A stretch of 64,000 nucleotides of DNA from a virus, in IMG/VR virus record IMGVR_UViG_3300033146_001127, positions 6,040 to 70,039 of that record. One strand, given 5' to 3'. Positions 17,271-40,175 of this stretch are shown piece after piece (the stretch's first letter is position 1; every line of letters starts with the position of its first letter). Below the pieces are notes generated by a model that had not been told where the DNA came from, searched no databases, and was given only the letters and a program-made list of their open reading frames with translations. A program made the translations under genes and the position numbers.

Positions 17271-17427
17271 TTGACATAATTTATCATCCATGTTAGACTA
17301 AGGTTATCTTTCCGAGCGGGGAAAAATATATTATTATATTAATACTGTTAAAGAAGGAAAAAAGTAAAAGGAAGGAATGAGAAATAAGTTATGAGTTTAC
17401 GAATAACTTATTGAACATCCGAAGGAT
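17271..17427 (+). repeat. bipartite non-coding element, copy A (promoter plus structured blocks)
   Basis: Blocks 17280-17324 and 17378-17427 recur inverted at 40122-40166 and 39981-40030; starts with TTGACA-17-TAGACT. Confidence 0.9.
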
Positions 17428-17495
17428 AGAAAGACAAAGACACCTTTGATAAATAGAGATGTAATTTTATTTAATTGAAAAGTTGGAGGTGTCTA

Positions 17496-17990
17496 ATGAA
17501 AGTTGCATTGTATATTGCTGATACAGGATCAATGATTGATAAGGTGATCAATTTATGGACAGGATTATATGGATACAGTCATAGTGAGATTGTATTTGAT
17601 ATGATTCCAAAAGAAAGAGGAAAATATTTATGTTGTAGTTCATCCCCTATAGATAGAAAGGTTAGATTTGAACGAATTGATATATATTCAAAACATTGGT
17701 ATGTTGTAGATATCCCAATGGAATATGAAGAAGAAGTTAAAGCATATAAAGAAATGAAGAAATTAGTAGGTGCAAAATATGATTGGAAAGGTATATTTTT
17801 AACTTTCATATTTAAGTGGATTAACAAACAAGATGATAAGAAGTGGTGGTGTTCTGAATTATGTTGTTATATATTGAACAAATATTATACACCAATGCCA
17901 ATAAGAATACATCCAAATAAATTAGCAAAAATATTAAAAGCACCAAATCAACCATTTACGTTTAGTATTGGGTTAAAGAAAAGGTTTTGA
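17496..17990 (+). CDS. permuted papain-like (NlpC/P60-related) enzyme
   Basis: YSHSE...GAKYDW...KWWCSE motifs; GGAGG before ATG 17496. Confidence 0.7.
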   Translation: MKVALYIADTGSMIDKVINLWTGLYGYSHSEIVFDMIPKERGKYLCCSSSPIDRKVRFERIDIYSKHWYVVDIPMEYEEEVKAYKEMKKLVGAKYDWKGIFLTFIFKWINKQDDKKWWCSELCCYILNKYYTPMPIRIHPNKLAKILKAPNQPFTFSIGLKKRF

Positions 17991-18217
17991 AAATGAAATA
18001 TCCAACAATAGAAGAAATTGAAAAAGCTGATAGAGTTACTATTGCCAGATGGTATAGGAGTCTACCTTTTCCTGGTGCAAACCATTTAGGTGAATATAAC
18101 TTTGATAAGATTTGTTTACATGAAGCAAAGTTAATGGAAAGAATCAACGAACGATTTGAATCTATGGGTGGTATGACACCTGAGATTTCAAAAATTATAG
18201 GTCCTTTATATAGATAG
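17987..18217 (+). CDS. hypothetical protein
   Basis: RWYRSLPFPG...GGMTPEISKIIG. Confidence 0.65.
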   Translation: MKMKYPTIEEIEKADRVTIARWYRSLPFPGANHLGEYNFDKICLHEAKLMERINERFESMGGMTPEISKIIGPLYR

Positions 18218-18303
18218 GAGGAGAACTAAGATGGATGCATTTTATATGAGAACTAATGATATGATAATCAGGCGGGGGGAGCCCGCAATAAGGAGATATT
18301 ATC

Positions 18304-18588
18304 ATGTCAAAGAGAGCAATAAGAAGGTCACATTACAATAGATTGAAGATTAAAAGATATAAACAATTAAAAAATGATTGGTGGTATTATAATCACCAAA
18401 CTGATGAAGAATTATTAAAAGATGCAGCATTTTTAGCTGTAACCCCACGAAGATGTTCATGTTCTTTATGTGGAAACCAGAGACATAATAAATGGTTAAC
18501 AAAGTGGGAACAATTAACTCAACAAGAAAGAAGATCAAAGATTGATGAGATTGAACAAATAAATGAATGGGGGGATAATTATGTTTGA
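18304..18588 (+). CDS. hypothetical basic protein
   Basis: TPRRCSCSLCGN motif; AGGAG RBS. Confidence 0.65.
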   Translation: MSKRAIRRSHYNRLKIKRYKQLKNDWWYYNHQTDEELLKDAAFLAVTPRRCSCSLCGNQRHNKWLTKWEQLTQQERRSKIDEIEQINEWGDNYV

Positions 18589-18707
18589 AAAGTTTTTAGT
18601 GTATAAACAAAAGTTTTCTAATTTACTTGACGTTCTTGATGAGAAATATCTAGTGAAAATTAGAAAATCATATTTATTTGTATTATGTTGTATATTGATA
18701 TTGAAAC

Positions 18708-19262
18708 TTATATTTTAATTTCTTTACCAGTAACATTAGTATAGATACGTTTAGCCAACCCTTCCGATTCGGTATCGCCCATGTCGTGAAGGGTTGAAAT
18801 TATTTTACCCATATTTTTTTCAATATAATCAACTCCATCAACGTAATTATCAAATGCTGTTATGGTTATACCTAATACATTTTGTAATACATGTCTTGGA
18901 ATTGCCGTAATACCTAAGAAAGTTTTATCAATATTAACAAAGAATGAAACAACATCCTCTTTTTTTACTTTAGAAAAGGCATCTTTAATATCTTTTTCTA
19001 ATTGTTGTCTTGGTTGAGGATCTAATAAATCAGCATGAATAGAATAATCAATTAAGAGTTTAGTTAAATGTAAAACACCTTTACCTGCTCTTGATAATTG
19101 ATATTGAAATGTTTTTGATTTTCTAACTTTGATGCCAACTTTTTTACCTAATGTTTGTAATTTTAGTAATAATTCATCAGATATTTCATTTAATTCATCA
19201 GTTATATATATGTACGATAAGATGTTATAATCCACTTCGTTGATATAATTTTTAAATTTCAT
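18708..19262 (-). CDS. putative internal head protein
   Basis: N-terminal MKFKNYINE, resembling a capsid-targeting sequence; late promoter upstream. Confidence 0.6.
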   Translation of the reverse strand: MKFKNYINEVDYNILSYIYITDELNEISDELLLKLQTLGKKVGIKVRKSKTFQYQLSRAGKGVLHLTKLLIDYSIHADLLDPQPRQQLEKDIKDAFSKVKKEDVVSFFVNIDKTFLGITAIPRHVLQNVLGITITAFDNYVDGVDYIEKNMGKIISTLHDMGDTESEGLAKRIYTNVTGKEIKI

Positions 19263-19278
19263 AATCACTCCATAAAAG

Positions 19279-19317
19279 AATAGCCCATTCTCTATTATTT
19301 ATAAAGAATGGGCTATT
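19279..19317 (-). promoter_or_regulatory. 13-bp hairpin with a late promoter (TATAAATA) in its loop
   Basis: AATAGCCCATTCT / AGAATGGGCTATT arms; minus-strand TATAAATA at 19296-19303. Confidence 0.6.
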
Positions 19318-19340
19318 TGTATGATATAAAACGGATTTAT

Positions 19341-19562
19341 TTATTTGTATTTTTCACAGATGACTTCAAATTCTTCTTTTGCGTCTTCATATTCCAAGAG
19401 GATACCGCCATCATAATGGATATAATGTTCTTTATCTACAACACGAACATAATAACCCCAATCCTCATTCATTAATTTAACTGTCAATCCATTTTTCAAT
19501 AATTTTTTTTCTTTAACTCCTAAGTTGTCGCCAATGGCTTTGAACACAGTTTCTTTTTTCAT
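19341..19562 (-). CDS. hypothetical protein
   Basis: Likely start MKKETVF after GAAAGGA. Confidence 0.55.
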   Translation of the reverse strand: MKKETVFKAIGDNLGVKEKKLLKNGLTVKLMNEDWGYYVRVVDKEHYIHYDGGILLEYEDAKEEFEVICEKYK

Positions 19563-19629
19563 AACATTTCCTTTCGGTGGAGTTCCCAACACATTAAGAG
19601 TATACCACATTAATAATTTCTTTGTCAAC

Positions 19630-20535
19630 CTATATTCTCTTTCTTCTTCTGATATTTCTTGTTTGTTTTGTTTTTGGTATATTATCTTTTACCCATTGTC
19701 TAAGGTCATCCCAATTAAACATTTCTTTTTTGAAATCATCACTGGACTTCATTGGTTTACCCTCTTCTTTTATGTTGATATATTTGAAACTCTTAATTAC
19801 CATTTGTCCTTGACGTTCAATATGTTCACCTGGTAATTGAACAAATTTATTTTTTCCTTTAATGGTTTCTTTTGTATCATTTGTGGTCATATAAATGGTG
19901 TGTTTCTTCCCACCTAAGATGATATTAATAGAACCATCAATTAAAGTACCAATTCCACTAATTTTACCTCTTAACATGTCAGTCATTGTTAATGCTGCAC
20001 CTGTATGAGTTTTTAACATAATATCATCAGGAACTTTTCTTTCACGTTCTGCATTTTGTTCAATGGCAATTTTATAATCAGTTAATATCCAAACAAGGTG
20101 GACGTTTACTGGTTTATAACCAACCTCAAATAAAATTGGAAGAACTTCATATATATCACCTTCATCTTTCAATGTGACATCAAATAAAATATTAGGAAGT
20201 GTGGAAGGATTTTCAGCACCCTTTAATAATAAATTAAGAGTTTCGTTTTTCCAACCTTTATCTTTAACATATTGATGTAATTTGAATACTTCTTCTGGAT
20301 TACCTAGATTGATATTAGCAATTTCAGGATTATCACCTTTTAATTGTGCTAATTTTATTGCTGCTTTTTTTAGTTCATCAACGTCTCTAACTTTGAACTT
20401 ATTTATTTCCATAAAGTTGGTTGATGAAAAACCTTTACCTGAACCAGCACCCCCAGCAAGGAATACAATTTGTCCATATTTTTGACCATTGCCAATTATA
20501 ATTTGTTTCTCAGTTAAATATTGTTTATATTTCAT
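19630..20535 (-). CDS. P-loop kinase (zeta-toxin/PNK-like), putative internal head protein
   Basis: GGAGSGKG Walker A, LFDVT, NAERERKVP lid; N-terminal MKYKQYLTE; TATAAATA at 20565-20572. Confidence 0.75.
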   Translation of the reverse strand: MKYKQYLTEKQIIIGNGQKYGQIVFLAGGAGSGKGFSSTNFMEINKFKVRDVDELKKAAIKLAQLKGDNPEIANINLGNPEEVFKLHQYVKDKGWKNETLNLLLKGAENPSTLPNILFDVTLKDEGDIYEVLPILFEVGYKPVNVHLVWILTDYKIAIEQNAERERKVPDDIMLKTHTGAALTMTDMLRGKISGIGTLIDGSINIILGGKKHTIYMTTNDTKETIKGKNKFVQLPGEHIERQGQMVIKSFKYINIKEEGKPMKSSDDFKKEMFNWDDLRQWVKDNIPKTKQTRNIRRRKRI

Positions 20536-20585
20536 GTGAATCTCCTATTTTTATATAACAGTTGTATTTATAAAAAAATAGGAGA

Positions 20586-21989
20586 TTATTTCAGTTCATT
20601 TGTCACATCTTTTATTAGTTTTGATATACAAACAAAATCTTTAGAGTTTATGAATCTTTCAGTGACAACTTTTATTACATCACCAACCATTTTACCTTGT
20701 TTCAAACCTGTCAATTCCATTACTACTTTGCCACTAACAAGTTTCACACTGTTTTCTTTTTTGAATGTTTTAAATTCTTTGAGAAGATTGTCAACCATTT
20801 CCATTTTTTCGTTCCAATCATTCTCATCAAACATTCCAACACGACAACTATCATCACAGAACATAACCTCTTTAAGTATTGGAAAAAATTCATGTGATGC
20901 GTGTTTAACTATTGTTGATTTTTTCATTTCTCTTGTATGGAACATGTTCATATGGTTTTTTGAAACAAAAGTAAATACATCTTTTTCATGGTTAGTAAAC
21001 TTTAATCTTTTACATACATTTTCTATTATTGGAACACCTTCAACACCATGACCAGAAAACCGATGACAAACTTTACCTCTTTTTGGCATAAACTCTAATT
21101 TATGACAAACAGCTTTACCAAGGTCATGAAACAAAACAGCAAAGTTTATTAATGAATCCTTTTTTGTGTTTTGTTTAAGAGCTTCCATAGTATGAACAAA
21201 TGGAGTTCCATCACCAAATTTGTATGCTTCAGGGTGGAACATAACATCTTCTTGTACATTTTGAAGAGCTTTAACTTCTGGTAATATAACTTCAAGGAGT
21301 TTTGTTTCATCAAGTAATCTTATACCTTTTTCAAAAAGAACCCCATCACCAGATGCCATTTTTGTAAGTTCATCTTTGACACGTTCTTTTGATACAAGGT
21401 CAACTTTTTCTTTCAACATTCTTATGGCAGCAAAAGTATTATCATCTATTTTGAAATTAAACCGAGAGGCAAATCTTACAGCCCTTAACATTCTAAGATG
21501 GTCTTCATTGAAACGGTCTACTGGTTCACCAACAGTTTTTATCAAACCATTTTTAAGGTCATTAAGACCACCAACAAAATCTATTACACGACCAAACTTA
21601 TCCAATCCAAGAGCATTTATTGTGAAATCTCTACGTTTAACATCTTCTTGAAATGATTTTGTCATATGAACTTTGTCAGGGTGACGACCATTAGATTCTT
21701 CTGAATCAACCCTGAATTGTGCTACTTCAAAAGAAAATCCTTTATGGTTAACAACAACTATACCAAAGTCTTTTGATTTTCCTATATCATGAGTATCAAA
21801 TAATTCTTCAACAACTTCCATAGGAGCATTTGTAGATATATCAACATCATGTGGTTCTATTCCTAAAACCAAATCACGGACACACCCACCAACAAAAAAT
21901 GCCTTATGTCCTTTGTTTTCAAGAGTATTGAGTATTTCCACCCCCACCTCAAACTCTTTTATATTTTTTAATTCATTTTGAAAAGTCAT
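20586..21989 (-). CDS. cca: CCA-adding tRNA nucleotidyltransferase with HD-like domain
   Basis: VGGCVRD...DVDIST, RRDFTINAL, EDHLRMLRAVRF, ERVKDEL, LFHDLGK. Confidence 0.93.
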   Translation of the reverse strand: MTFQNELKNIKEFEVGVEILNTLENKGHKAFFVGGCVRDLVLGIEPHDVDISTNAPMEVVEELFDTHDIGKSKDFGIVVVNHKGFSFEVAQFRVDSEESNGRHPDKVHMTKSFQEDVKRRDFTINALGLDKFGRVIDFVGGLNDLKNGLIKTVGEPVDRFNEDHLRMLRAVRFASRFNFKIDDNTFAAIRMLKEKVDLVSKERVKDELTKMASGDGVLFEKGIRLLDETKLLEVILPEVKALQNVQEDVMFHPEAYKFGDGTPFVHTMEALKQNTKKDSLINFAVLFHDLGKAVCHKLEFMPKRGKVCHRFSGHGVEGVPIIENVCKRLKFTNHEKDVFTFVSKNHMNMFHTREMKKSTIVKHASHEFFPILKEVMFCDDSCRVGMFDENDWNEKMEMVDNLLKEFKTFKKENSVKLVSGKVVMELTGLKQGKMVGDVIKVVTERFINSKDFVCISKLIKDVTNELK

Positions 21990-22039
21990 ATTCCCTCACT
22001 CTCTGAAACCATTATAACATATTATTTTTAGAATATCAA

Positions 22040-22074
22040 CAAAAAAAGGGGATACCAAAAATGGCATCCCCTTA
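22040..22074 (-). terminator. intrinsic terminator
   Basis: GGGGAT(A/G)CC stem with a T-tract on the minus strand, downstream of 22104-23636. Confidence 0.7.
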
Positions 22075-22103
22075 TAAAATAATATTAAATAAAAATTAAA
22101 TTA

Positions 22104-23636
22104 TTATTTTGGTGCTACATTAGGATCTTGTTGTGCGGTTGCTGCTCTATTTTGACCATCACCAAAATCATTTGGATTATAACAAGTTCCAGCAATCCAA
22201 GTATAACCAGCAGCAAGACAAGCTGATTGAGTTGTAATTGCATCTAATGTTGCCTGATCTGGAGCTACAACACATGTATTATCTTTGTAATTCCAGATGT
22301 AACCAAGATTACGACAAGCATTTGCCAAATAATCACGTTTTGAACCATTTGAACTACCAGTTTTACCTGGGGTAACACTACCAAATACAAAAGAAGCCAT
22401 ATCAAAATTACTTGGGGTATCACCAGCAATACAAGTTCCTGTTGAGATATCCCAAAAGTTTCCAGATACTTCACAATCTCTCATTGCCTTTTCTTCGTCA
22501 AGATCACCAGCGGTTACTGCTGCATTAATTAAATCAGCACCAGTTGCTGCGGTTGCATCAAGGGCAATACAAGAATCTGTTCCATCAAATATTGTTCCAG
22601 CAGGACAATCACTATATGATTTTGCATTTCCAGCCCAGAAAGCAACTGCTTCAACAACAGTCATTTCACGACAGAAACCATAACCACCTTGATCAGCATC
22701 ACCTGTTGTACCAATTTCCCAAATAAAACCATTAGCTTCACAACGTGTTCTGTCAGTCATATCTTCAGCACGAAGATTATTACCAACCAATTTACCATTT
22801 GCATCAACCAATGTAGGTTCAACAAATACAGTTGTTTTTCCACCATCAATATAAGTTTTTTGAATTGCTAATTGTGGTTTATCAGCAGGACGAACTACTT
22901 TAATTTTTGGGTCATTCGCTGTATTAGATAAAGAAGGAGCAGCTGCTGGATCATAGATACCAGTAAAAGTTCCTTGCCAATATACTTCTGGTGAATCAGT
23001 TTTAAGACTGATTTCAGAACAAACCAAATCATCTTCTAATGTATAACCTTTACCACCTGATAAGATAGATAATGCTGTTACAGCACCAGTATTTGCATCA
23101 ACTGCATCAATTAAAATTAAAGCTGAATCATTATCACCTTGAATTACTCTAGCTTGTGTACCTTCAACAAAATATTTTGATTTATCATTTGAACCTAAAG
23201 CAATACCATCAACAGCACCATCACCATCAACAGATGTAACTTCAACTAAAAGACCAAAACCAGTGACATATTCTTCAACGTCACCACCTAATTCATATTC
23301 TGTATGGTCAACATAATCACTACCTAAAGTAAATGTTGCACCTGCCACAGTATATTCACCTGTATCAGCAGCAACCCAATCACCACCATCAGTAAAAGTA
23401 ATTGCAGAAATAGCACCAACACCATTTGATGTAGGACTATAACCACCTTGTACACCAGTAACAGTAATTACTAAATTAGTACCAGTTGTTCCATTAATTG
23501 CGGCTAATACATCACCAACCATGTAATTAGAGCCACCATCCACGATTTCAATAGATTGAATAACATTTGAATCATCAGCAGTTACGAAAAACTTTGCATC
23601 AGTTGTCAATCTATCAGAAAATTTATTAAATCCCAT
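22104..23636 (-). CDS. putative virion structural/decoration protein with Cys-pair repeats
   Basis: Gly/Thr/Asp-rich beta repeats (GGSNY, GGKGY), then five C-x3-G-x2-(W/F)...C modules; TATAAATA at 23693-23700; GAGG RBS. Confidence 0.7.
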   Translation of the reverse strand: MGFNKFSDRLTTDAKFFVTADDSNVIQSIEIVDGGSNYMVGDVLAAINGTTGTNLVITVTGVQGGYSPTSNGVGAISAITFTDGGDWVAADTGEYTVAGATFTLGSDYVDHTEYELGGDVEEYVTGFGLLVEVTSVDGDGAVDGIALGSNDKSKYFVEGTQARVIQGDNDSALILIDAVDANTGAVTALSILSGGKGYTLEDDLVCSEISLKTDSPEVYWQGTFTGIYDPAAAPSLSNTANDPKIKVVRPADKPQLAIQKTYIDGGKTTVFVEPTLVDANGKLVGNNLRAEDMTDRTRCEANGFIWEIGTTGDADQGGYGFCREMTVVEAVAFWAGNAKSYSDCPAGTIFDGTDSCIALDATAATGADLINAAVTAGDLDEEKAMRDCEVSGNFWDISTGTCIAGDTPSNFDMASFVFGSVTPGKTGSSNGSKRDYLANACRNLGYIWNYKDNTCVVAPDQATLDAITTQSACLAAGYTWIAGTCYNPNDFGDGQNRAATAQQDPNVAPK

Positions 23637-23718
23637 TATTATTTCCTCCTATTATTTTTGGAATATTGTAACCCATAAGGGTTATTCAGTTTTATTTATA
23701 TAGAAGAAAATATTTTTT

Positions 23719-23991
23719 TTATTTTGGTTGGGAAAAAATGTCAGAAATTCTCATATAGGCATTGACTTTTTTTACATCATATCCTAATTCATCAATAATG
23801 TAAAATGCTATTAAACCAGGTAAATGTAGGGTAGGATTATCAATGTAAAAGTTGTATGCTTCTTCAACAGTACAGTTTTCAGATTTACATGCAATTTCTT
23901 CTGATAATCTAATAAGAGGAAGGGATTGGTCTATGTCACCATAAACCAACCCCCAATTTTCTTTGATAATATTTTTTAGTTCATCTATCAT
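23719..23991 (-). CDS. hypothetical protein
   Basis: Translationally coupled to the TROVE gene. Confidence 0.55.
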   Translation of the reverse strand: MIDELKNIIKENWGLVYGDIDQSLPLIRLSEEIACKSENCTVEEAYNFYIDNPTLHLPGLIAFYIIDELGYDVKKVNAYMRISDIFSQPK

Positions 23992-25502
23992 ATTTCAATA
24001 GAGTTAATGATGTCAATTACGGTATCACCTTTTTCCAAATTGTTCATCATTTCAAATACTTTTTCATTCCAACCAGAAATTAGATAAATATCATTATCTT
24101 TTTCTGAGAATGGACTAGTGCCATATGAATTAAGATTAAACAAATACAATTTTGCATTTGGATTATTTTTCTTATATTCACTCCATTCTTTTCTGATAGA
24201 TCCACCATATAATTCACAATCAGTGAAAATCATAATTTTATCAAACTTCTGATTATTTTCATTTGCATATTTCACAACTTTATAACCATTAGTTGAATAT
24301 CCAACTTCACCATTAATACTATGTAATTTGGATACATTTGATAAAATACTATTCTTTGGAAAATTATATGTTTTGAATATATCACCAAAGATACCAGTAA
24401 TGGAATATTTTGTTTTATGTCCAATCATCATAGCCATCATTGTTCCGATATCATACATCATGATTGAAGATTTTTGTGATACACTACTCCACATAGAACC
24501 AGATACATCAGCAGCAATCAAAACATTATCATCTTCATTGAGAGGAATATTTTTGATTGAATGTATTACAGCTGATTCTAATGCTTCAAGAATAAGTGGT
24601 GTATATACAGATGTAATAACTTTAGAATTAAATAAGTTATATGAACCACTATCACCTTTTAACATTTTATATGCTGATAAAAATCTAAATGGCAACTGTT
24701 TAGATTTCAAAACAGCATTTTCATTACTGATATAATTACATACTTTTTCAATGTGTTCTTTGGATACATCGGCTTCAAGAATGTTTCTTAGGTTACGAAG
24801 AGTTGCCATATAACCAACTTTCTTGGAATCAATTAGTTCTTCCCACACATCTTTTTTTGAACGACCATTTTTGCCACTTTCTGATAATTGAGTTTCCCAA
24901 GTATAAGGGGTATCCAATGTATCAGTAATTATTTTTTCAAATAATTCTTTTTGTTCTGGTGTTTTAGGTGATACATGACACAAAAATAGTGCATCACGAA
25001 ACTTAACATCAGTTGGTCTATTGTATTTGGCAAAATGATATTCTTCAAACTTATCAAACGCCTTTGAAATACCTTTTGATATTTGTTTTGACAATTTGTT
25101 AAGTTTTTTTGTTCCCACTCGTTTATTTGAGATTTGATAAAAAGCTAATAGTTCTGTAATCTCATCTGCACGTTGGATGACATTTTCAGTCATACGAGAT
25201 ATTAGATTATCCCCATTATGTATTTTTGCCAATTCTACTGTTAATACAAGTGGAATAGTACGAAGATTCATTTCTTTTCTGGCATATACCGCAAGTCTTG
25301 CAACATATTCAGGATTACATTGAGAAATCAAAGATTGAATTCTTTTTAATGTTGAATTTGAATCTTCATAAAAGGTATTTTGTAACATAGATGCACATAC
25401 TGTTTTATATAATTCCATTTCTGGATTTAATGTATATGCTTCGCCATTTTCATGGTTTATTGTTTTTGAATGGTCTACTGCTGTTGAATTAAATCTACTC
25501 AT
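23988..25502 (-). CDS. rsr: Ro60/TROVE-domain RNA-binding protein with vWA domain
   Basis: NHENGEAY, YARKEMNLR, QRADE, TWETQLS, MATLRNLRN, QLPFRFLSAY, DVSGSM (MIDAS), FTD; start ATG 25502 with GGAGG. Confidence 0.93.
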   Translation of the reverse strand: MSRFNSTAVDHSKTINHENGEAYTLNPEMELYKTVCASMLQNTFYEDSNSTLKRIQSLISQCNPEYVARLAVYARKEMNLRTIPLVLTVELAKIHNGDNLISRMTENVIQRADEITELLAFYQISNKRVGTKKLNKLSKQISKGISKAFDKFEEYHFAKYNRPTDVKFRDALFLCHVSPKTPEQKELFEKIITDTLDTPYTWETQLSESGKNGRSKKDVWEELIDSKKVGYMATLRNLRNILEADVSKEHIEKVCNYISNENAVLKSKQLPFRFLSAYKMLKGDSGSYNLFNSKVITSVYTPLILEALESAVIHSIKNIPLNEDDNVLIAADVSGSMWSSVSQKSSIMMYDIGTMMAMMIGHKTKYSITGIFGDIFKTYNFPKNSILSNVSKLHSINGEVGYSTNGYKVVKYANENNQKFDKIMIFTDCELYGGSIRKEWSEYKKNNPNAKLYLFNLNSYGTSPFSEKDNDIYLISGWNEKVFEMMNNLEKGDTVIDIINSIEI

Positions 25503-25537
25503 TATTACCTCCAAGAATTAAACGTCATTGTTTGGTA

Positions 25538-25730
25538 AAATTATTAGGATTTTGTCATTGAAGGAGTGTGGCTCGTTGTCCACTTATTAACGAATAATTA
25601 ACTTTTACATTAATTAACGGGTATACGAATTTAAGGAATTGTAATACCATCCAACCTTTTCGCATTCAATTTTAACCAGAATGTCAGCAATTATGTTTGA
25701 AGTATCCATCAACTACGTCACTAATAATTT
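25538..25730 (-). ncRNA. candidate Y RNA (Yrl-like) upstream of Ro60
   Basis: Ends pair (AAAUUAUUAG / CUAAUAAUUU); inner helix UUGAUGGA / UCCUUCAA; promoter TTGACA-17-TAATAT immediately upstream; adjacent to the TROVE gene. Confidence 0.65.
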
Positions 25731-25746
25731 ATATTGTTAGATATTA

Positions 25747-25899
25747 TCAGTTTTCTTTTTGTTTGTCAACTTTCTTTTTCTTTTTCTTCATTTTTTTTGT
25801 ACCAATGGGAACTTTGGCTATATCACTAGTGGTTGTTCCAACTCCACCCCCATCACCACCTGAACCATCACATTCATTTATATATTTTTTGAATTTCAT
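25747..25899 (-). CDS. small Gly/Lys-rich protein (50 aa), putative internal head protein
   Basis: MKFKKYINECDGSGGDGGGVGTTTSDIAKVP...KKKKKK; start overlaps the radical SAM stop. Confidence 0.65.
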   Translation of the reverse strand: MKFKKYINECDGSGGDGGGVGTTTSDIAKVPIGTKKMKKKKKKVDKQKEN

Positions 25900-26576
25900 T
25901 ATAATCCCCTATTCATATGTGACCAACTATTAAGATGTGTATAATTATTATTTATAATACATTTAATTAATCTGTTAGTGTAATTGGAATATCCACCAAT
26001 TTTACCTAATGCTTTGAATATTTCCATGCATGATTTATATTGTATTGGATAATCATATTTCCCTTCAAAGTGAAAAGGAGTAAATGTACTATCAGTGAAA
26101 AATAGGGAAAAATTAATATTTGGATATTTTTTGAGAAAGTTATATAATAAATGTGAATTTTTATTATGTAATACTATATTTGTTACAACATTATAGTTAT
26201 GATTATCTTCTATAAAATGTAATATTTTTTTGTCAATTTCTTGATCTAATTCGGAGACACAATGAATTATTATTTCTCTGATATGTTTTTCATATTTAAC
26301 ATGGAAATTTTTTTTGATGAAAGTACCATTTGTACAAATTGCTAATTTATAATCAGTCATATGGAACAATTTATACCAAAAGTCATCGGATAATAATCCT
26401 GGTTCACCACCACTTAAAAATACATGTTTTAATTTATATTTAATTTTTTTAATTTCATTTAATATTTCATTTTCATTATATGCACCATTAGGGTCACGGG
26501 CAATACAATATGGACATTTCCAATTACATACATTATGTAGACCTATACAAAATTCATTAACATATAATTTTGTCAT
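25899..26576 (-). CDS. radical SAM protein
   Basis: CNWKCPYC, LSGGEP, TNG. Confidence 0.88.
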   Translation of the reverse strand: MTKLYVNEFCIGLHNVCNWKCPYCIARDPNGAYNENEILNEIKKIKYKLKHVFLSGGEPGLLSDDFWYKLFHMTDYKLAICTNGTFIKKNFHVKYEKHIREIIIHCVSELDQEIDKKILHFIEDNHNYNVVTNIVLHNKNSHLLYNFLKKYPNINFSLFFTDSTFTPFHFEGKYDYPIQYKSCMEIFKALGKIGGYSNYTNRLIKCIINNNYTHLNSWSHMNRGL

Positions 26577-27511
26577 CGTAATGTTACCGTTGTTCCTGTC
26601 ATATGATTAATTTTTGATGATCTATTTGTCCATACTAAAACAGAAGGATCATCATATAGAAAATCACAATCTTTACAGAAATTAATTTCATCAAATCGTT
26701 TTTCTCTGTGCATTTGTCTTAACCAATTATATCTTTCTGAATTATATGATTCTATTATTGATTTGTCGTCACAATGAGATAAAACTGCTTCTTCATCTCG
26801 TCCTAATATTTGACAACAAGGAACAACAGCTAATTTATGTCCATTAATTCCGCCAGCTCTAATTGTTATTTCTGGTGCGAAAGGTCTACCACAAGTTTTC
26901 TTTTCACCTTTCCTTGTGTTTACTTTTAACATTCCAGACCAATTATGCATCTTCCATATTTCTGCTGGACAGTTGGTTATATTAATAACATTATTTTTAT
27001 ATAATTGTATTTCTTCAATTGAATTGATTATTAAATGATAAGAAAACAAATCACAATTTGATTTTGTTAGATTTATATAATCTTTCATTTCTATCATATT
27101 TTGTATAACGGTATTAAAATTATCTCTACCAGTTATATTTTTATATGAAGATTCATTATAACCTATTATAGAAAATCTGAAAAGACCTAATCCAGCATCA
27201 ATACATTCTTTCATAAAAGAACCATTCATTAGATATCCATTGGAATATAATTGAGGTTTAATTCCTTTTTTAACTGTATATTCTATATATTTAGGGAGAT
27301 TTTTATTAAGGGTTGCTTCACCTGATCCATCCAATTGAATCACATTAACACCAATTTGACTACATTCATCAATTAATTTTTTATATTCATTAAATTCAAT
27401 AGAATCATTAAATAAACCTCTTCCACCTTGTGATTGAGGACACATTTTACATAAATAATTACATGAGCCTTCTATTTCAATGACTGCTCTTTTTATTTCT
27501 ACATATTTCAT
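26573..27511 (-). CDS. radical SAM protein with SPASM/twitch domain
   Basis: CNYLCKMC, GSGEA, SNG; C-terminal CGRPF...VPCC...CKDC. Confidence 0.9.
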   Translation of the reverse strand: MKYVEIKRAVIEIEGSCNYLCKMCPQSQGGRGLFNDSIEFNEYKKLIDECSQIGVNVIQLDGSGEATLNKNLPKYIEYTVKKGIKPQLYSNGYLMNGSFMKECIDAGLGLFRFSIIGYNESSYKNITGRDNFNTVIQNMIEMKDYINLTKSNCDLFSYHLIINSIEEIQLYKNNVINITNCPAEIWKMHNWSGMLKVNTRKGEKKTCGRPFAPEITIRAGGINGHKLAVVPCCQILGRDEEAVLSHCDDKSIIESYNSERYNWLRQMHREKRFDEINFCKDCDFLYDDPSVLVWTNRSSKINHMTGTTVTLR

Positions 27512-27541
27512 ATAATATATTTATAAATTGTTGAGGGAAAA

Positions 27542-28894: not shown

Positions 28895-28904
28895 TTTTTA
28901 TTCC

Positions 28905-29369: not shown

Positions 29370-29401
29370 TTATAAAATTCCTCCATTTTAATGTATAACA
29401 G

Positions 29402-29420
29402 TATTTATATTTTATAAATA
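29402..29420. promoter_or_regulatory. divergent T4-type late promoters (TATAAATA on both strands)
   Basis: Minus 29402-29409 and plus 29413-29420, at the strand switch. Other intergenic copies at 11265, 12507, 19296, 20565, 23693, 27518, 33165, 37139, 51254 (the 8-mer also arises by chance in AT-rich DNA). Confidence 0.7.
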
Positions 29421-29449
29421 GTATATGAATATACTAAAAGGAGATTTAT

Positions 29450-29959: not shown

Positions 29960-29960
29960 A

Positions 29961-30143
29961 ATGGATTTATTAGAAAAAATAGAACTGATGTTAGGTGAAG
30001 GTCTTTCCAAGGAGGAGAAAAAGAAAGCAAGAAAAGAAGAAAAGGGTGAGAAGGAAGATTATGAAGATGTTGGTCATGAACAAAAAGAATCACCTGAATA
30101 TGAAGAAGCAGAACATGACACTAAAAATGATGAGGAAGAATAA
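29961..30143 (+). CDS. small charged protein, putative prohead core/internal protein
   Basis: MDLLEKIELMLGE then a K/E-rich tail. Confidence 0.6.
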   Translation: MDLLEKIELMLGEGLSKEEKKKARKEEKGEKEDYEDVGHEQKESPEYEEAEHDTKNDEEE

Positions 30144-31565: not shown

Positions 31566-32684
31566 ATGTATGATTTGGATAATATGATGTTCCAAAATAA
31601 GGAGATGACAGAGATGACAGAAAATAGTGTTAAAACTGTGACAAAAAAGAAGACAACAAAAAAGAAAGTAGGTAAACCTGGGATTGGATTGGATGTTGGT
31701 ACTGGTTTTCTTGTTGGTGCTGGATATGATGGGTCTAATAAAGAATCATTTGCACCACTAAGAGATGCCTTTTTTACAATAGATAAGGAAACATTCAATC
31801 GTTCTATGTTTGATAAAGGTAGTATGAAATATATAGAGGTTGGTAACGATATTCATGTTATCGGTGAAGATGCTTTAACATTAGCAAAAATTAAAAATAC
31901 TTCTGCAAAAAGACCATTAAATAGAGGTGTTATTAATCCACAAGAACGTAATGCTGCTCCAATATTAAGAGAGATGTTTAGATATTGTATTCAGCCTTAT
32001 ATAAAAAAGGAAGGGGAAAAGATGGTATTCTCTATTCCTGGTGCAAAGGTAGGAGATGAATCATTTGATGTTGATTATCATTCAATGTCTATACAATCAT
32101 TAGGGAAATCATTTGGTGTTGATGCAATTCCAATTAATGAAGCATATGCTGTTATTTTATCTGAGATGGAAAAATCAGAAGATGTTACAGGATTAGGTTT
32201 TTCATTTGGTGCTGGTCTTGTAAATGTATGTTTTGTTTATAAGTCAATGTTATTGTTTGAATTTTCAATAGACAAATCAGGTGATTTTATTGATACAGAA
32301 TCAGCAAAAGCATGTGGTGTTTCTACTGCTGTAATTAATCATATCAAAGAAAAAGAATTAATATTAACTGCTGATGAGTTTAGTGTATCACCTGAAATTA
32401 GAGCATTAATTTTTACTTATAAACATGTAATAAAAAATACAATAAGAGAAGTTATAAAAGCATTTACTAATACAAGTGATGTTAATGTAATAGAACCAAT
32501 ACCAATTGTTGTATCAGGTGGAACAAGTATACCAAAAGGATTTATTGAATTATTTGAGGAAGAGATTAAAGGTTCTGATATGCCTTTTGAGGTGACAGAA
32601 ATTATTCCTGCAAAAAATAGATTAGCTGCTGTTGCCAAAGGTTGTCTGTTATGGGCAAACCATTTAGAAAATATTAAAAATTAA
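31566..32684 (+). CDS. actin/MreB/MamK-like ATPase
   Basis: Phosphate-1 GLDVGTG, connect INEAYA, phosphate-2 SFGAGLVN, adenosine VVSGGTS, AVAKG. Confidence 0.85.
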   Translation: MYDLDNMMFQNKEMTEMTENSVKTVTKKKTTKKKVGKPGIGLDVGTGFLVGAGYDGSNKESFAPLRDAFFTIDKETFNRSMFDKGSMKYIEVGNDIHVIGEDALTLAKIKNTSAKRPLNRGVINPQERNAAPILREMFRYCIQPYIKKEGEKMVFSIPGAKVGDESFDVDYHSMSIQSLGKSFGVDAIPINEAYAVILSEMEKSEDVTGLGFSFGAGLVNVCFVYKSMLLFEFSIDKSGDFIDTESAKACGVSTAVINHIKEKELILTADEFSVSPEIRALIFTYKHVIKNTIREVIKAFTNTSDVNVIEPIPIVVSGGTSIPKGFIELFEEEIKGSDMPFEVTEIIPAKNRLAAVAKGCLLWANHLENIKN

Positions 32685-33165: not shown

Positions 33166-33291
33166 ATAAATAATAAAGAATATGTAAATTCTAATTATTG
33201 ACTGATTAAGTTCAGGTTAACATAATATACCTTTCTGTTGTGTTAATACAGGTTAGAATATGAAAGGAATAAAATTATACGGAGAAAGGAA

Positions 33292-34096
33292 ATGAAGTTT
33301 CATGGAATTGATGTACAAGGTTATATTAAAATATTAAAGTAAAAGAATATGATCACACACCAACATATAATTCTTCTACTGATGAAAGAAGACTTATATA
33401 TGTAAATGATAGTGTAACTGGTGAAGATCATTTATTACTTGGTGGTGGACAAGCTGGATCATGGGTAAGTATTATTACTGATCAATATGAAGGTAATATT
33501 TCAGGTTATTATACAAAAAATGAATGTGATGGACGATATTTAACTTCAACTGATGTTAATGTAAGAAATTTTGATAATTATAATAGAGGTATAATTTACG
33601 ATGAAACTAGTACATTCATCCCTGTTGGGGCAACAACAGCAACTGAATCAGATGATGGTACTGGTGCTTATGATCCTAGTGGTAATGAAAATGTAGTTAA
33701 ACGTGATGATCAAGGTAGTATATATGCAAATTATGGTTATCTAACAGCATATCAAGCTCAATATGCTGACTTGGCTGAGAAATATACATGTATTGATTTA
33801 CCTGTTGGTACTGTTGTTGGTGTTGGTGTTACTGAGAATGAAGTTGAACCATACAATCAAGGCATGAAAGGTGTTGTTGGTTAATGAATGGGAATTCAGA
33901 AGGGTTGCCAATAGCATTAACTGGAAAAGTTAAAGTTAGAATTATTGGTGATATTCAAAAAGGAGATTGTATTGTACCAAGTGATATTTTAGGTTGTGCT
34001 GAAAAGGGTGAATTTTATGATGAAATGAAGTTTGGTTATGCCCTTGAAAGTAAGACTGAAGAATCAGATAATTTAATAATGTGTATTATAAAATAA
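33292..34096 (+). pseudogene. fibre-like protein with C-terminal peptidase-G2-type intramolecular chaperone, broken by two frameshifts (real or assembly error)
   Basis: MKFHGIDVQGYIK; tandem duplication ATATTAAA at 33323-33338; open frame with YADLAEKY; second break at about 33882 before MNGNSEGLPIALTGKV. Confidence 0.7.
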
Positions 34097-36511: not shown

Positions 36512-36525
36512 TAGGAGATTGAATT

Positions 36526-37143: not shown

Positions 37144-37177
37144 ATATAGTGATTGTATAAAACACTGGTACTATTAA

Positions 37178-37214: not shown

Positions 37215-37278
37215 CTAAATATATGTAGTGATTAGAGGTTTCGTGCCTTTACTATAATAAAAAATGGGAGGAAGTAGA

Positions 37279-38079: not shown

Positions 38080-38102
38080 TTATTTCATAGGAGGAATTAA
38101 TA

Positions 38103-39395
38103 ATGAGTAAGTATGTAGAAAATCTTGTTACCAAATGGGATGAGATTCTTAAAGAAGGTTCTAATATTTCCAATCGTAAGGTTAAGAGAGCAACAGCAGT
38201 TATGCTCGAAAACCAGATGAATTATATCACAGGTAAAAATCCAAGTATCAATGAGGCAGGCACAGTTGGTGGTGCTATTAATCCTGATGCTGGTAATGAT
38301 ATGTATGCAGGTTCAGGTAATTATCATAGTAATGCTGAATTCCATAAGATTGCTATTCCTATGGTTCGCCGTACTTTCCCTGAGTTGATTGCACATGATA
38401 TCGTAGGTGTTCAACCAATGACTGGTCCTGTTGGATTGGCATTTGCACTTCGTTTCCGTGCTGACCAAGATTATGCTGGTCAAGCTAATACTGAATTGGG
38501 ATACAATACAATTGATCCTTATTACAGTGGTGATCAACAAACAAGTCGTGCTAATACCACTCTTGATGGTGAGGCACTTGGTTCTAATACTGCTGCTTCG
38601 TCAACTGACAATTACTTAAACCAAGGTCAAGCTGGTGAGGGTGTTGGTGATAGAGGTCTTGGTATCGGTTCTGGTAAACAGATTCGTGAATTGAGTATGA
38701 CAGTTGAAAAAGCACAAGTTGAAGCTGGTACTCGTAAGTTAAGAAGTCGTTGGAGTTTGGAAGTTGCACAAGATTTGAAAGCAATGCACGGACTTGATCT
38801 TGAAGAAGAAATGATGGACGTTCTTGCTTATGAAATCACAGCAGAAATTGACCGTGAATTAATTAATACCATGAGAAGTGTTGCTTCTAATAACGCATCT
38901 TCTACTACATGGGATTATGCAGCAGCTGATGGTCGTTGGGAAGCTGAAAAATATCGTAACTTCTACAATCTTTTAGTTCGTAAGGCTAACCGTATTGCAG
39001 TTGACACTCGTAGAGGTGCAGGTAACTTTGTTATTGCTGCTCCATCTATTTGTGCCGCACTTGAAACAACATCTTCATTCACCATTCAACCAGTTAACTC
39101 TGATGTTAATACTGCTGTTACTGGTGTTGCAAAGATTGGTTCACTTGATGGTCGTATGACTGTTTATCGTGATACATTCGCAACTCTTGATGATGTTATC
39201 ATTGGTTACAAAGGACCTAGTGAGTATGATACTGGTATTATTTACTTACCATACATTCAATTGTTAGTATCAAAAGCTGTATTTGAAGATAGTTTCAACC
39301 CAACAGTTGGTTTGATGAGTCGTTATGCTATTCATCAACACATCTTTGGTGCTGAGAACTATTATATCCAAGTTGCAGCACAGAATTTACCATAA
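38103..39395 (+). CDS. gp23: major capsid protein, T4 gp23-like
   Basis: MLENQ, VRRTFPELIAHDIVGVQPMTGPVGLAFALR, RKLRSRWSLEVAQDLKAMHGLD, TRRGAGNF, YLPYI. Confidence 0.97.
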   Translation: MSKYVENLVTKWDEILKEGSNISNRKVKRATAVMLENQMNYITGKNPSINEAGTVGGAINPDAGNDMYAGSGNYHSNAEFHKIAIPMVRRTFPELIAHDIVGVQPMTGPVGLAFALRFRADQDYAGQANTELGYNTIDPYYSGDQQTSRANTTLDGEALGSNTAASSTDNYLNQGQAGEGVGDRGLGIGSGKQIRELSMTVEKAQVEAGTRKLRSRWSLEVAQDLKAMHGLDLEEEMMDVLAYEITAEIDRELINTMRSVASNNASSTTWDYAAADGRWEAEKYRNFYNLLVRKANRIAVDTRRGAGNFVIAAPSICAALETTSSFTIQPVNSDVNTAVTGVAKIGSLDGRMTVYRDTFATLDDVIIGYKGPSEYDTGIIYLPYIQLLVSKAVFEDSFNPTVGLMSRYAIHQHIFGAENYYIQVAAQNLP

Positions 39396-39415
39396 CGGTT
39401 AATTCTTAATATAAT

Positions 39416-39455
39416 AAAAAAGGGTGATACTTTAATTTGTATCACCCTTTTTTTA
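39416..39455. terminator. bidirectional intrinsic terminator after the capsid gene
   Basis: AAAAAAGGGTGATAC...GTATCACCCTTTTTTT. Confidence 0.85.
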
Positions 39456-39458
39456 TCT

Positions 39459-39743
39459 TTAATTAAGAACTGTAACCACTTTAGGATTGTAACTATTATA
39501 ATTTCTAACAGGTGAAGTCTGGTGACATTTACCACTTTTAATTTCAACTTTAACACCACGAGCTTTTTGTGTTTCCATATAAAGTGGCATATCACAATCT
39601 TCTTCAAGATAAACTGAATCACCTTTCATATATGAATAAGATGTGATTTCATCAACAATTCCAAGTTCAATAATTTCTTTTCGTTTAACAGAAAGCCATC
39701 CATGCCCCCAATCACTGAGAAAAGTTTTTTTAACTGTTTTCAT
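39459..39743 (-). CDS. conserved hypothetical phage protein (cassette-borne)
   Basis: DWGHGWLSV...VYLEEDCD motif; preceded by leader copy 8. Confidence 0.8.
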   Translation of the reverse strand: MKTVKKTFLSDWGHGWLSVKRKEIIELGIVDEITSYSYMKGDSVYLEEDCDMPLYMETQKARGVKVEIKSGKCHQTSPVRNYNSYNPKVVTVLN

Positions 39744-39749
39744 ATTAAA

Positions 39750-39817
39750 TCTCCAAAAATGAAAGGGTTATCACCAACTCACAAATACATAATAACCTAT
39801 ACTGATTATAAAGTCAA
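39750..39817 (-). promoter_or_regulatory. repeated early promoter/leader cassette, copy 8
   Basis: TTGACT-17-TATTAT plus TTTGTGAGTTGGTGATAACCCTTTC and GGAG. Confidence 0.85.
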
Positions 39818-39821
39818 GAGT

Positions 39822-39965
39822 TTATTTTGGTAAGATCTTGGTTGGATTCCATTTTCCATTTCTTACATTGTTACAATATCTCCCATACATTTCATAAAAA
39901 TAATATCTATCATGAGATTTTGTTAATTTCTTTGCTTTTTCTTTCCATTCAAAATAACTTAACAT
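39822..39965 (-). CDS. small basic protein (47 aa)
   Basis: MLSYFEWKEKAKK...; AAGGA RBS directly after non-coding element copy B. Confidence 0.5.
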   Translation of the reverse strand: MLSYFEWKEKAKKLTKSHDRYYFYEMYGRYCNNVRNGKWNPTKILPK

Positions 39966-39980
39966 AATTCCTTCTCCTTC

Positions 39981-40175
39981 ATCCTTCGGATGTTCAATAA
40001 ATTATTCGTAAACTCATAATTTATTTCTCAAATCTTTTATTAAACTTTTCATAAATACTAATGTAAATAAAATGTTAACTATCATTTAATAGTTGGTATG
40101 GTTATTGTTATATAATATATATTTCCCCGCTCGGAAAGATAACCTTAGTCTAACATGGATGATAAAAAATGTCAA
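39981..40175 (-). repeat. bipartite non-coding element, copy B (inverted relative to copy A)
   Basis: 45-nt block identical to copy A; 50-nt block with two compensatory substitutions. Confidence 0.9.

Follow-up and report, generated by a model that had tools for sequence, protein, structure and literature searches.

The locus studied here raises the question of why a phage should carry, twice and in inverted orientation, a stretch of non-coding DNA that opens like a strong promoter and closes with two hairpins. The window analysed, 64,000 nucleotides (positions 6,040 to 70,039 of the IMG/VR record IMGVR_UViG_3300033146_001127), is a fragment of an uncultivated T4-like phage present in sediment samples, and the whole record comprises 70,039 bases, estimated at about 27% of the genome. 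In the protein scan of the window, the portal (phrog_213), protease (phrog_207), scaffold (phrog_237) and major head protein (phrog_138) genes stand in T4-like order, as do those for the large terminase, head closure, DNA end protector and PhoH. The record contains 27 TATAAATA motifs, 13 on the (+) and 14 on the (-) strand, several of them immediately 5' of genes, and the phage encodes a TROVE/Ro60 protein (23988-25514, -) and other RNA-repair enzymes. A blastn search of GenBank phages with positions 17000-20000 as query returned no match.

The first-pass annotation had placed copy A at 17271-17427 (+) and copy B at 40175-39981 (-), and both were recovered as it read them. Each copy opens with TTGACA, a 17-nt spacer ending in TGT, and TAGACT, giving 10/12 consensus matches and a TG before the -10, and the 45-nt block ending TTTCCGAGCGGGGAAA is identical in the two. 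The main hairpin is AATAAGTTAT-GAGTTTACGA-ATAACTTATT in copy A and AATAAATTAT-GAGTTTACGA-ATAATTTATT in copy B, with two differences that together convert a G-C pair into an A-T pair, a compensatory change, and the mini-hairpin ATCC-GAA-GGAT follows 3' of it in both. No ORF of at least 40 aa lies over either copy. The spacers, which had been called unrelated, are indeed variable between the copies, but both start with the same kind of pure A/T tract. The features are as follows.

17271..17299 (+): putative promoter of copy A, a consensus match, with -35 TTGACA at 17271-17276 and -10 TAGACT at 17294-17299
17300..17341 (+): conserved transcript start (predicted) of copy A, with AAGGTTATC, the C/G hairpin TTTCC-GAGCGG-GGAAA and a pure A/T tract; kept in relatives
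17342..17382 (+): variable spacer of copy A, purine-rich (77% over 17335-17377)
17383..17412 (+): main hairpin of copy A, arms 17383-17392 and 17403-17412, loop GAGTTTACGA at 17393-17402; covariation
17417..17427 (+): mini-hairpin of copy A, ATCC-GAA-GGAT with core CCGAAGG; covaries with AACC-GAA-GGTT in relatives
39747..39824 (-): next early promoter (putative) with a conserved leader, assigned by sequence to family D1, for the 94-aa gene 39459-39743
39822..39965 (-): 47-aa ORF from the ORF list, separating the hairpin block from the next early promoter
39981..39991 (-): mini-hairpin of copy B, ATCC-GAA-GGAT, with GAAGGAG and the ATG of the 47-aa ORF directly 3'
39996..40025 (-): main hairpin of copy B by sequence, arms 40025-40016 and 40005-39996, loop 40015-40006
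40026..40104 (-): variable spacer of copy B, whose (+) strand bears CATAAATA at 40050-40057
40105..40146 (-): conserved transcript start (predicted) and A/T tract of copy B, from sequence and repeat finder
40147..40175 (-): putative promoter of copy B, a consensus match, with -35 TTGACA at 40175-40170 and -10 TAGACT at 40152-40147

The repeat finder returned two pairs of inverted arms, 17271-17334 with 40112-40175 (64 nt, 95% complementary) and 17359-17427 with 39981-40049 (69 nt, 84%). Copies A and B are the only two in the 70,039 bases of the record, and the heptamer CCGAAGG was likewise seen twice in it (17419, +; 39989, -), both times inside the units, with about 1.2 occurrences expected from composition. 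The promoter block of copy A is preceded by the stop of a 41-aa ORF, and that of copy B by the start of a divergent gene (40192, +), to which its promoter stands back to back. CATAAATA in the spacer of copy B, which we take to be a T4-late-promoter-like motif directed toward the gene at 40192, is conserved at the same place in L079, L080, L082 and L089. Downstream, a ribosome site and start codon follow both units (GAAGGAG and ATG at B; GGAGG and an ATG 68 nt on at A), and the D1 promoter-leader family has eight copies in the window. DNA and RNA folding energies alike predict both hairpins, on either strand. The terminator scan found no terminator at the hairpins of A or B, and no U run follows either hairpin.

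The hairpins are not peculiar to this phage. In at least eight other viral lineages we observed the 16-nt tip TATGAG-TTTA-CGAATA on top of stems that covary and are unrelated to one another, and the same tip was noticed in repeat families of Flavobacteriaceae and Saccharibacteria. Its architecture consists of TATGAG, a loop of 3-5 nt and CGAATA, with two G-A/A-G mismatches stacked on a G-C pair; the stems range from 5 to 14 bp and are free in sequence, and the asymmetric 10-nt centre is invariant across lineages. The phage stems are perfect Watson-Crick palindromes, and the bacterial relatives display G-U pairs on the strand with the sense loop (15 G-U-type vs 3 A-C-type cells). Bacterial hairpins that share both this tip and the GAAC after it are multi-copy in Flavobacteriaceae and Saccharibacteria, reaching up to 51 per genome in Flavobacteriaceae (G120; control 0) among the matches listed, counts that rest on one exact 16-mer. 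Since the promoters and ribosome sites of the phage are, as we assume, not of the Bacteroidota kind, Flavobacteriaceae and Saccharibacteria are probably not its hosts.

The unrelated contigs with the tip, compared over stretches of 6-19 kb, had no neighbouring protein in common; across lineages, matches were limited to a DNA methyltransferase, in the window and G008, and to PhoH, in the window, G002 and G003. The Rfam query that the first-pass annotation had proposed matched no family: at the gathering threshold the whole window yielded a single tRNA only, the hairpins gave no match at E values up to 10, and the 20 + 9 + 1 other loci with the same tip gave none either. A full-text literature search for the loop sequence, in either orientation, retrieved only primers in unrelated papers. 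The search for further copies in relatives did find them, with covarying stems. As one hairpin tip recurs on differing, covarying stems in many phages and some bacteria, there is strong support for the earlier suggestion that the structure is under selection.

Of 80 related loci compared 3' of the major head gene, 11 contain the element, in four sequence versions. In L079, L080 and L089 the hairpin block lies directly 5' of an early promoter, a ribosome site and a gene of about 90 aa. The close relatives L076-L078 and L081 have no element, and L076 carries a different 15-bp hairpin at the same place, before the promoter of the same gene. Neither L079 nor one contig of run X3 has the 47-aa ORF; in that contig, position 39790 is joined to 39992 and 201 positions are skipped, and further contigs carry other flanks at the element. 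Both promoter blocks of the window recur in G002 and G013, each between the same outer and inner flanks. At its locus A, G002 has the same upstream 41-aa gene, promoter and A/T tract as the window, with the hairpin block replaced by a classical intrinsic terminator, so the hairpins occupy the position of a terminator. At locus B of G002, two hairpin blocks, the second decayed, surround an inserted (+) ORF of 159 aa. The conserved transcript-start segment is also found in relatives, although the closest one, L079, has lost AAGGTTATC. A pure A/T run of at least 15 nt, about 25 nt past the -10, is present in five of seven copies (window A, window B, L089, L082 and G002-A) and is interrupted in L079 and L080. 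At all loci with a recognisable consensus promoter (window A and B, L079, L080, L089, L082, L072, L073 and L368), the loop GAGTTTACGA lies in the transcribed sense. These comparisons show the promoter block and the hairpin block to be separate modules, which recombine independently and mark sites of gain and loss of small genes.

From the observed anatomy, conservation, hairpin covariation, modularity and indels at the element, we tentatively favour, at somewhat less than even confidence, a short early transcription unit without any ORF, closed or insulated by hairpins and forming a variant of the T4-type promoter-early stem-loop (PeSL) cassettes. In each copy a strong host-type promoter (sigma-70, extended -10) would fire and give a transcript of about 130 nt (A) or about 170 nt (B). 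Its conserved 5' end would consist of AAGGUUAUC, a small C/G hairpin and an A/U tract, and its 3' end would be formed by two unusually stable hairpins just before the next ribosome site or early promoter. The hairpin pair may stop, pause or protect the 3' end of this short early transcript, and may shield the next cassette. It is this reading of the hairpin pair, as what closes or insulates an early unit, that would make the unit a PeSL variant.

The units resemble PeSLs, as described in PMC4122927, in several respects: the phage is T4-like; the early promoter is near the sigma-70 consensus, with hexamers 17 nt apart; in L079, L080 and L089 a stem-loop stands before an early promoter with its ribosome site and small gene; both units are followed on the 3' side by a ribosome site and a start codon; and close relatives differ at the element by indels or replacements. 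On the other hand, PeSLs are many per genome and clustered in hyperplastic regions (PMC4122927), whereas only two copies exist in 70,039 bases here. The order also differs, for no stem-loop of its own precedes the A or B promoter; the promoter block is followed by an ORF-less leader of 60-100 nt and then by the stem-loops, and in window copy B the 47-aa ORF intervenes before the next early promoter. Moreover, two specially capped hairpins stand here without a GC-rich terminator stem or U run, and their cap is shared far beyond T4-like phages. The T4-like gene order, the consensus promoters, the PeSL layout of the three relatives and the plasticity of the element count for the early-unit reading, together with the sense-strand loop at visible promoters and the G-U pairs of the bacterial hairpins. 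Against it count the failure of a search to list any RNA run containing positions 38800-41200, the lack of a U run or predicted terminator, the presence of two copies only, the absence from L076-L078 and L081, and the stem-loop lying downstream of its own promoter block where that of a PeSL lies upstream. A plain terminator or insulator role leaves the conservation of the 16-nt tip across unrelated phages and bacteria unexplained.

The main rival to the early-unit reading, which we regard as possible though unlikely, is a transcription-primed (R-loop) replication origin. The transcript would stay hybridised in the A/T tract and the displaced non-template strand would fold into the two DNA-stable hairpins, acting on helicase and primase as a signal for loading or priming, with two such origins facing each other 22.8 kb apart. 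According to PMC3016281, minimal T4 oriF and oriG comprise, in about 100 bp, a promoter followed by an unwinding element rich in A+T, oriE needs an early promoter, and active T4 origins lie at transcription-strand switches. The units are comparable in layout, with an early-type promoter as in oriE and an A+T-rich tract, and copy B stands at a strand switch; like the T4 origins of that account, the element is also dispensable and not conserved among relatives (PMC3016281). The units have no MotA-type promoter, and the T4 origins have neither a shared motif nor described hairpins (PMC3016281).

The hairpin caps have counterparts in known priming signals. PMC13037366 describes CCGAAGG as the mini-hairpin in the ssiA priming signal of RSF1010 and GAA and GGA triloop hairpins as the promoters of the N4 virion polymerase, and GCGAAAGC occurs at the G4 priming site. 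The units thus share the exact heptamer of ssiA, the GAA 3-nt loop of N4 and a sheared G-A cap. PMC13037366 places both caps, C-GAA-G and G-A/A-G next to G-C, among kinds far more stable in DNA, the RNA versions of such hairpins being much less so. Together with the perfectly palindromic phage stems, these caps point rather towards a role at the DNA level and count against the early-unit reading. The ssiA and N4 signals, however, act on single-stranded DNA with dedicated enzymes, the RepB' primase and the N4 virion RNA polymerase (PMC13037366). In the general scan of 69 window proteins, neither of these enzymes appeared, nor did any primase.

The genomic surroundings of the hairpins bear on the origin reading in both directions. 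In the unrelated phages G006-G008, a same-tipped hairpin lies beside a lambda-O-like initiator gene with three iterons, upstream of DnaC-like, DnaB-like and primase genes, and in G003 one lies between an integrase and a UvrD-type helicase; in G001, G004 and G009, by contrast, the hairpin is not adjacent to replication genes. The inverted pair of promoter blocks is kept in G002 and G013, and the fixed sense orientation of the loop suits an origin equally well, because the displaced strand has the sequence of the RNA. Nevertheless, the GC skew, which had been proposed as a check for an origin, tracks the coding strand, with its cumulative minimum at 28-29 kb and no origin signal at A or B. There are no replication genes near either copy in the 70 kb, locus A of G002 has the promoter and A/T tract and no hairpins, and the spacer is purine-rich in A (77%) and not in B (55%). 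The same tip also occurs in multi-copy bacterial repeats, which cannot all be origins.

A broader reading, rather unlikely in our estimation, takes the tip and the C-GAA-G mini-hairpin as a new cross-phylum class of hairpin signals, comprising facing R-loop origins, reuse at iteron origins and bacterial repeats. A conserved factor of replication or transcription would then recognise the hairpins, in the form of single-stranded DNA or of RNA, and the displaced strand at the two promoter-driven copies would fold into a priming or loading signal. REP/BIME are repeated extragenic palindromes of bacteria, present in tens to hundreds of copies per genome, and they resemble the hairpins in being intergenic with covarying stems; here, however, the phage has two copies, each associated with a promoter. 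In lambda and HK022, the nut and put sites are hairpin RNA antitermination elements, and as with these, a hairpin occurs once downstream of each of two opposed early promoters, although the promoters are 22.8 kb apart here and not divergent neighbours. Three boxA strings had 0 matches in the record, and no N-like protein was identified in it.

We consider it improbable that the element is the gene of a trans-acting small RNA, or of an RNA that binds or sponges a protein, with the conserved loop as the recognised part. The strong promoter, the lack of an ORF, the conserved 5' end and a loop that is kept while the stems vary would fit such a gene, and at locus A of G002 the 5' segment, A/U tract, intrinsic terminator and U run form the usual layout of a bacterial small RNA. 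The Ro60/TROVE gene and the RNA-repair enzymes of the phage would suit a Y RNA in particular, and the two-part build of the element, its ends conserved and its middle variable, is that of the Y RNAs (PMC4201824). Both hairpins contain CGAA, a part of the Y RNA motif GNCGAAN0-1G given there, which is not strictly matched, as U or A stands for the first G. The element has no tRNA-like domain and no Rfam match, Y RNA included. Copy A lies 6.5 kb from the TROVE gene on the opposite strand, whereas Y RNAs are reported to lie within 4 kb on the same strand (PMC4201824). Y RNA was rejected on this distance and strand, and on the lack of any tRNA-like or Y RNA match in 16000-30000. Additionally, G002 has the element without a TROVE match and G011 has TROVE without the element (in a TROVE search of limited sensitivity), the closest relative lacks AAGGTTATC, and no conserved pairing partner of the loop was found.

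Far less probable is a double-stranded palindromic operator for a dimeric DNA-binding protein. The earlier annotation had listed a palindromic protein-binding site among its suggestions, and a perfect inverted repeat near promoters would agree with it, as palindromes that co-evolve with their protein can change on both arms. However, stem length and sequence vary while the loop is fixed, which makes such a site unlikely; the arms, of 5 to 14 bp, have no sequence common between lineages, and the invariance of the asymmetric 10-nt centre is the reverse of what an operator displays. Copies A and B of one genome differ by a symmetric change, and no gene co-occurs with the element. The adjacent 182-aa gene, aligned together with its neighbours from the relatives, is also present in L076, which has no element, and is for that reason not a co-occurring partner; as a single query, its protein found no relatives.

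That the repeats serve to invert the 22.8-kb segment carrying the head genes, as had also been proposed, is scarcely credible and finds no support. In its favour are the inverted arms of 64 nt and 69 nt and the greater likeness of A and B to each other than to their G002 counterparts, found likewise within G002, which suggests gene conversion between copies. Against it, the window, G002 and G013 are all the same isomer, and no contig compared displayed a junction with A and B swapped, although the 1.2-kb stretch used could not have revealed one directly.

Several other candidates were rejected. Against a leader peptide, the frame starting at the ATG of the tip is 7 codons long in A and B, 20 in L080, and 14 in one G002 copy and 3 in the other, the encoded peptides being unrelated, and there is no ATG in the tip of L019a or in the first hairpin of the L017 locus. 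The AUGAG...CGAA of the tip presumably resembles a hammerhead ribozyme core, yet two core positions differ and Rfam gave no hammerhead match. A CRISPR-like solitary repeat disagrees with L320, where the tandem units have no spacers. The 5' AAGGUUAUC might have paired with GAUAACCC in the D1 leaders, but L079 has lost the former and retained the latter, and no loop-spacer pseudoknot is common to A, B and L079.

To our knowledge, very little has been described of the origins and early regulatory signals in T4-like phages from the environment. The unit described here stands out for its clear anatomy, its two syntenic places in diverged relatives and its caps, which are otherwise known from priming signals, and it is a tangible candidate, open to cloning, for the way in which early transcription or replication begins in such phages. 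Beyond these phages, a 16-nt tip on freely varying stems, spread from phages to Flavobacteriaceae and Saccharibacteria and absent from Rfam, suggests either that the cap is exceptionally stable as a nucleic acid or that a shared binding factor has gone unnoticed.

The structure described here is real and under selection. Two copies of the element were located by sequence reading, as follows.

Copies of the bipartite element in the window
17271-17427, plus strand, copy A
40175-39981, minus strand, copy B

Both copies carry the same predicted promoter at their start (TTGACA, a 17-nt spacer with TGT at its end, and TAGACT), a 45-nt stretch ending in TTTCCGAGCGGGGAAA without any difference between them, a spacer of 53 nt in A and 91 nt in B, and a downstream 50-nt block with two differences, which together form one facing pair of a 10-bp hairpin, being G-C in A and A-T in B. 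The loop of this main hairpin is GAGTTTACGA in both copies, an ATCC-GAA-GGAT mini-hairpin follows 4 nt downstream, and both hairpins are predicted on both strands with RNA as well as DNA folding parameters. On re-reading, the two copies, promoter, both blocks and both hairpins agreed exactly with the first-pass annotation; the spacers, which it had called unrelated, do have the reported lengths, but each opens with a pure A/T tract, so they are not fully unrelated. The inverted arms returned by the repeat finder were 64 nt (95%) and 69 nt (84%), and no ORF of at least 40 aa covers copy A or copy B. The window takes up bases 6040-70039 of its virus record, which has 70,039 bases and is 27% complete by CheckV, and a search of this entire record for the further copies that had been thought worth seeking recovered only A and B, to which CCGAAGG is also confined.

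PHROG scans of 69 proteins identified a T4-like phage with portal, prohead protease, scaffold, major head protein, head closure, DNA end protector, PhoH and large terminase genes, and TATAAATA, the T4 late-promoter motif, precedes many genes. Copy B is flanked by the major head gene and by a 182-aa gene (ahead of PhoH and terminase), with which it stands back to back; leftward come a 47-aa ORF and then a promoter-leader of D1, a separate early family. Copy A has a 41-aa membrane ORF upstream and a 164-aa gene downstream. The phage also harbors an RNA-repair set of RNA ligase, CCA-adding enzyme and TROVE/Ro60 protein.

D1 copies and RNA-repair genes in the window
915-992, 2800-2860, 5026-5103, 5474-5551, 15397-15474, 15885-15962, 16578-16655 and 39747-39824, all minus strand, D1 copies (n = 8)
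19630-25514, minus strand, RNA-repair cluster
19630-20535, minus strand, P-loop protein of the cluster
20586-21989, minus strand, CCA-adding enzyme of the cluster
22104-23636, minus strand, 510-aa protein of the cluster, no family match
23988-25514, minus strand, TROVE/Ro60 protein with vWA domain (Pfam)

D1 consists of CTTGAC(T/A)T, 17 nt and a TATAAT-like element, followed by a nearly identical leader of about 45 nt (TTTGTGAGTTGGTGATAACCCTTTC...GGAG) reaching the ATG; in some copies, GGGTTATCA is complementary to TGATAACCC across the -10, and the leader also occurs in the relatives L079, L080 and L089. Rfam detected neither Y RNA nor tRNA-like RNA in 16000-30000. In an unrelated phage, G003 (L073, 12002-15928), the hairpin element is followed 3.4 kb downstream, on its own strand, by a DUF2828/DUF7788 vWA protein of phrog_850, to which the window's TROVE protein also belongs, and then by six tRNA genes. 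Amid the head genes, a 372-aa protein (31566-32684, plus strand) matches the actin-like family Volactin (PF25216, E 9e-59). Around 33247-34096 (plus strand), no ORF beginning at one of the usual start codons is called between 33110 and 33884; a short ATG-started frame (33247-33342) is overlapped by an open frame of 184 codons (33330-33884), which abuts a 70-aa ORF at 33884, and a structural gene may be frameshifted or split here. One repeat of 35 nt was also noticed at 33755-33789 and 53062-53096.

The 16-nt tip of the main hairpin was searched as the exact 16-mer TATGAGTTTACGAATA. The viral contigs of IMG/VR, own record excluded, gave 61 loci in 40 distinct contexts, and 9 of the 40 extend by 5-14 more Watson-Crick pairs with unrelated stems, where about 1 in 1000 per context is expected. 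Among the matches listed, prokaryotes (one genome per species, 120 loci) gave 113 contexts, 9 with at least 5 pairs, and metagenome contigs (119 loci) gave 93, 12 with at least 5 pairs. Five of the nine paired prokaryotic contexts have AAATTT/AAATTY flanks in common and look like a single candidate-phyla gene at its start; the remaining four are L263, L206, L214 and L169. In an ungapped alignment of 28 hairpins (27 distinct), a set chosen for palindromic flanks, so that 9/40 is the unbiased figure, paired cells reached 94.1% against 58.9% in shuffles (0/500 as high); 9 of 10 pairs vary on both sides, with a covariation score of 0.877, slid partners scoring 0.2 or less. The proposal of a selected structure is borne out by these paired, covarying stems under one tip in many lineages. 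The suggested Rfam query gave no match in the viral, prokaryotic and metagenome loci scanned, nor for the Flavobacteriaceae and Saccharibacteria repeats. The tip variants GAG-GAA-CGA, GAG-GTA-CGA, GAG-TTTTG-CGA and GAA-TGTAA-TGA are all compatible with two G-A/A-G mismatches that stack, beneath a small loop, on a G-C or A-T pair. The sequence d(ATGAGCGAAT) probably forms tandem sheared G-A pairs, which a literature search did not confirm among the papers listed.

The phage tip is low-copy (1-2 per contig) and is accompanied by a C-GAA-G hairpin in the T4-like group, G003 and G004. The Flavobacteriaceae harbor a multi-copy repeat family with the tip (GTTCGAGTG-hairpin-TGTATCGAGAAC), matched in 63 of 151 genomes sampled and reaching 51 copies in one of them (reversed control 0 in that genome). 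Since these copies carry the GAAC and GAAGG that follow the hairpin in the phage block, the comparison suggests common descent rather than convergence. Flavobacteriaceae repeats were seen at L412, L419, L423 and L320 and in genomes G015, G046, G120, G126, G139 and G140, commonly at contig ends and as inverted pairs separated by about 30 nt, and their tips are drawn from a few recurring forms (GCGAAGC-type, GAG..CGA-type and GGAATGTAATGGA). A Saccharibacteria family with the tip, near tRNA genes, has 4 copies in a 1-Mb genome (control 0). Its repeat, GATTGAG-stem-TGAGTTTACGAA-stem-CCAATTGGG, has 4-5 copies (L415, L418, L420, L422; genome G017), with tRNA genes 100-150 nt upstream of them, and a duplicated 3' end of the tRNA comes after the copy at L418.

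Of the related major head protein loci (best 80 of 120 confirmed), 11 carry the element downstream of the head gene (L079, L080, L082-L088, L089 and L100), in four sequence versions; L076-L078 and L081, close in other respects, lack it. L080 and L089 have the loop GAGGAACGA and the mini-hairpin AACC-GAA-GGTT, so both hairpins are altered and the hairpin form is nonetheless kept. In L079, L080 and L089, the hairpin block stands immediately 5' of a D1-type early promoter, a ribosome site and a gene of about 90 aa, and in L076 another hairpin, of 15 bp, occupies its position. In the G002 group, two hairpin blocks, the second decayed, flank an inserted plus-strand 159-aa ORF. G002 and G013 each have a second, inverted promoter block 33 kb off, behind a homologue of the window's 41-aa ORF, which indicates that the two-site arrangement is conserved; the second G002 site has no hairpin block, its A/T tract being followed directly by a classical intrinsic terminator instead. 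Contigs of four public DNA runs compared with 39300-40500 included one variant without 39791-39991 (the 47-aa ORF) and others with different flanks beside the hairpin block, and copy A was present in three runs. Relatives and run contigs together indicate that promoter block and hairpin block are separate modules at sites of gene gain and loss. The two promoter blocks of one genome are more alike than either is to its counterpart in the other, a pattern suggestive of gene conversion between them. Homing-endonuclease-like genes at the same site downstream of the head gene (L078, 4040-4878, and L089, 1075-1330, minus strand; L081, 3947-4795), in relatives with or without the element, mark this locus as an insertion hot spot.

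We tentatively favor, as the most economical reading, an ORF-less early transcription unit closed by the double hairpin, with predicted expression. Every copy with a visible consensus promoter (window A and B, L079, L080, L089, L082, L072, L073, L368) has the loop on the sense strand, and G-U-type exceed A-C-type cells by 15 to 3, mostly in bacterial copies; with the terminator replacing the hairpins at locus A of G002, these would be evidence for RNA. The perfectly palindromic phage stems, the mini-hairpin literature and the setting in G006-G008 would instead be evidence for DNA. In those phages, a same-tipped hairpin adjoins three iterons; a lambda-O-like initiator gene stands beside it, and genes for DnaC-like, DnaB-like and primase proteins lie downstream. 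According to a recent review (PMC13037366), mini-hairpins of the GCGNAGC type have a far higher stability in DNA than in RNA and are found repeatedly at origins of replication and transcription, the N4 virion polymerase has GAA or GGA triloop hairpins as its promoters, and RSF1010 ssiA includes CCGAAGG, the same heptamer as the phage mini-hairpin; T4 oriF and oriG are simply a promoter plus an A/T-rich element (PMC3016281). An R-loop origin with the hairpins as priming signals would reconcile both sides, since RNA and displaced strand share one sequence, and it is a serious rival, albeit one we consider rather unlikely. Against it, no replication genes lie near the copies, the spacer is purine-rich in A alone, the hairpin is away from replication genes in G001, G004 and G009, and GC skew, a check proposed earlier, tracks only the coding strand with no origin signal at A or B. 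We give a low probability to a trans-acting RNA, and an operator is very unlikely. Inversion of the bracketed segment, raised in the first-pass annotation, is the least probable; G002 and G013 show the same isomer as the window. On the favored reading, the early unit closed by its double hairpin would be a regulatory cassette like the promoter-early stem-loop (PeSL) cassettes of T4-type phages, with promoter and hairpin modules that shuffle.
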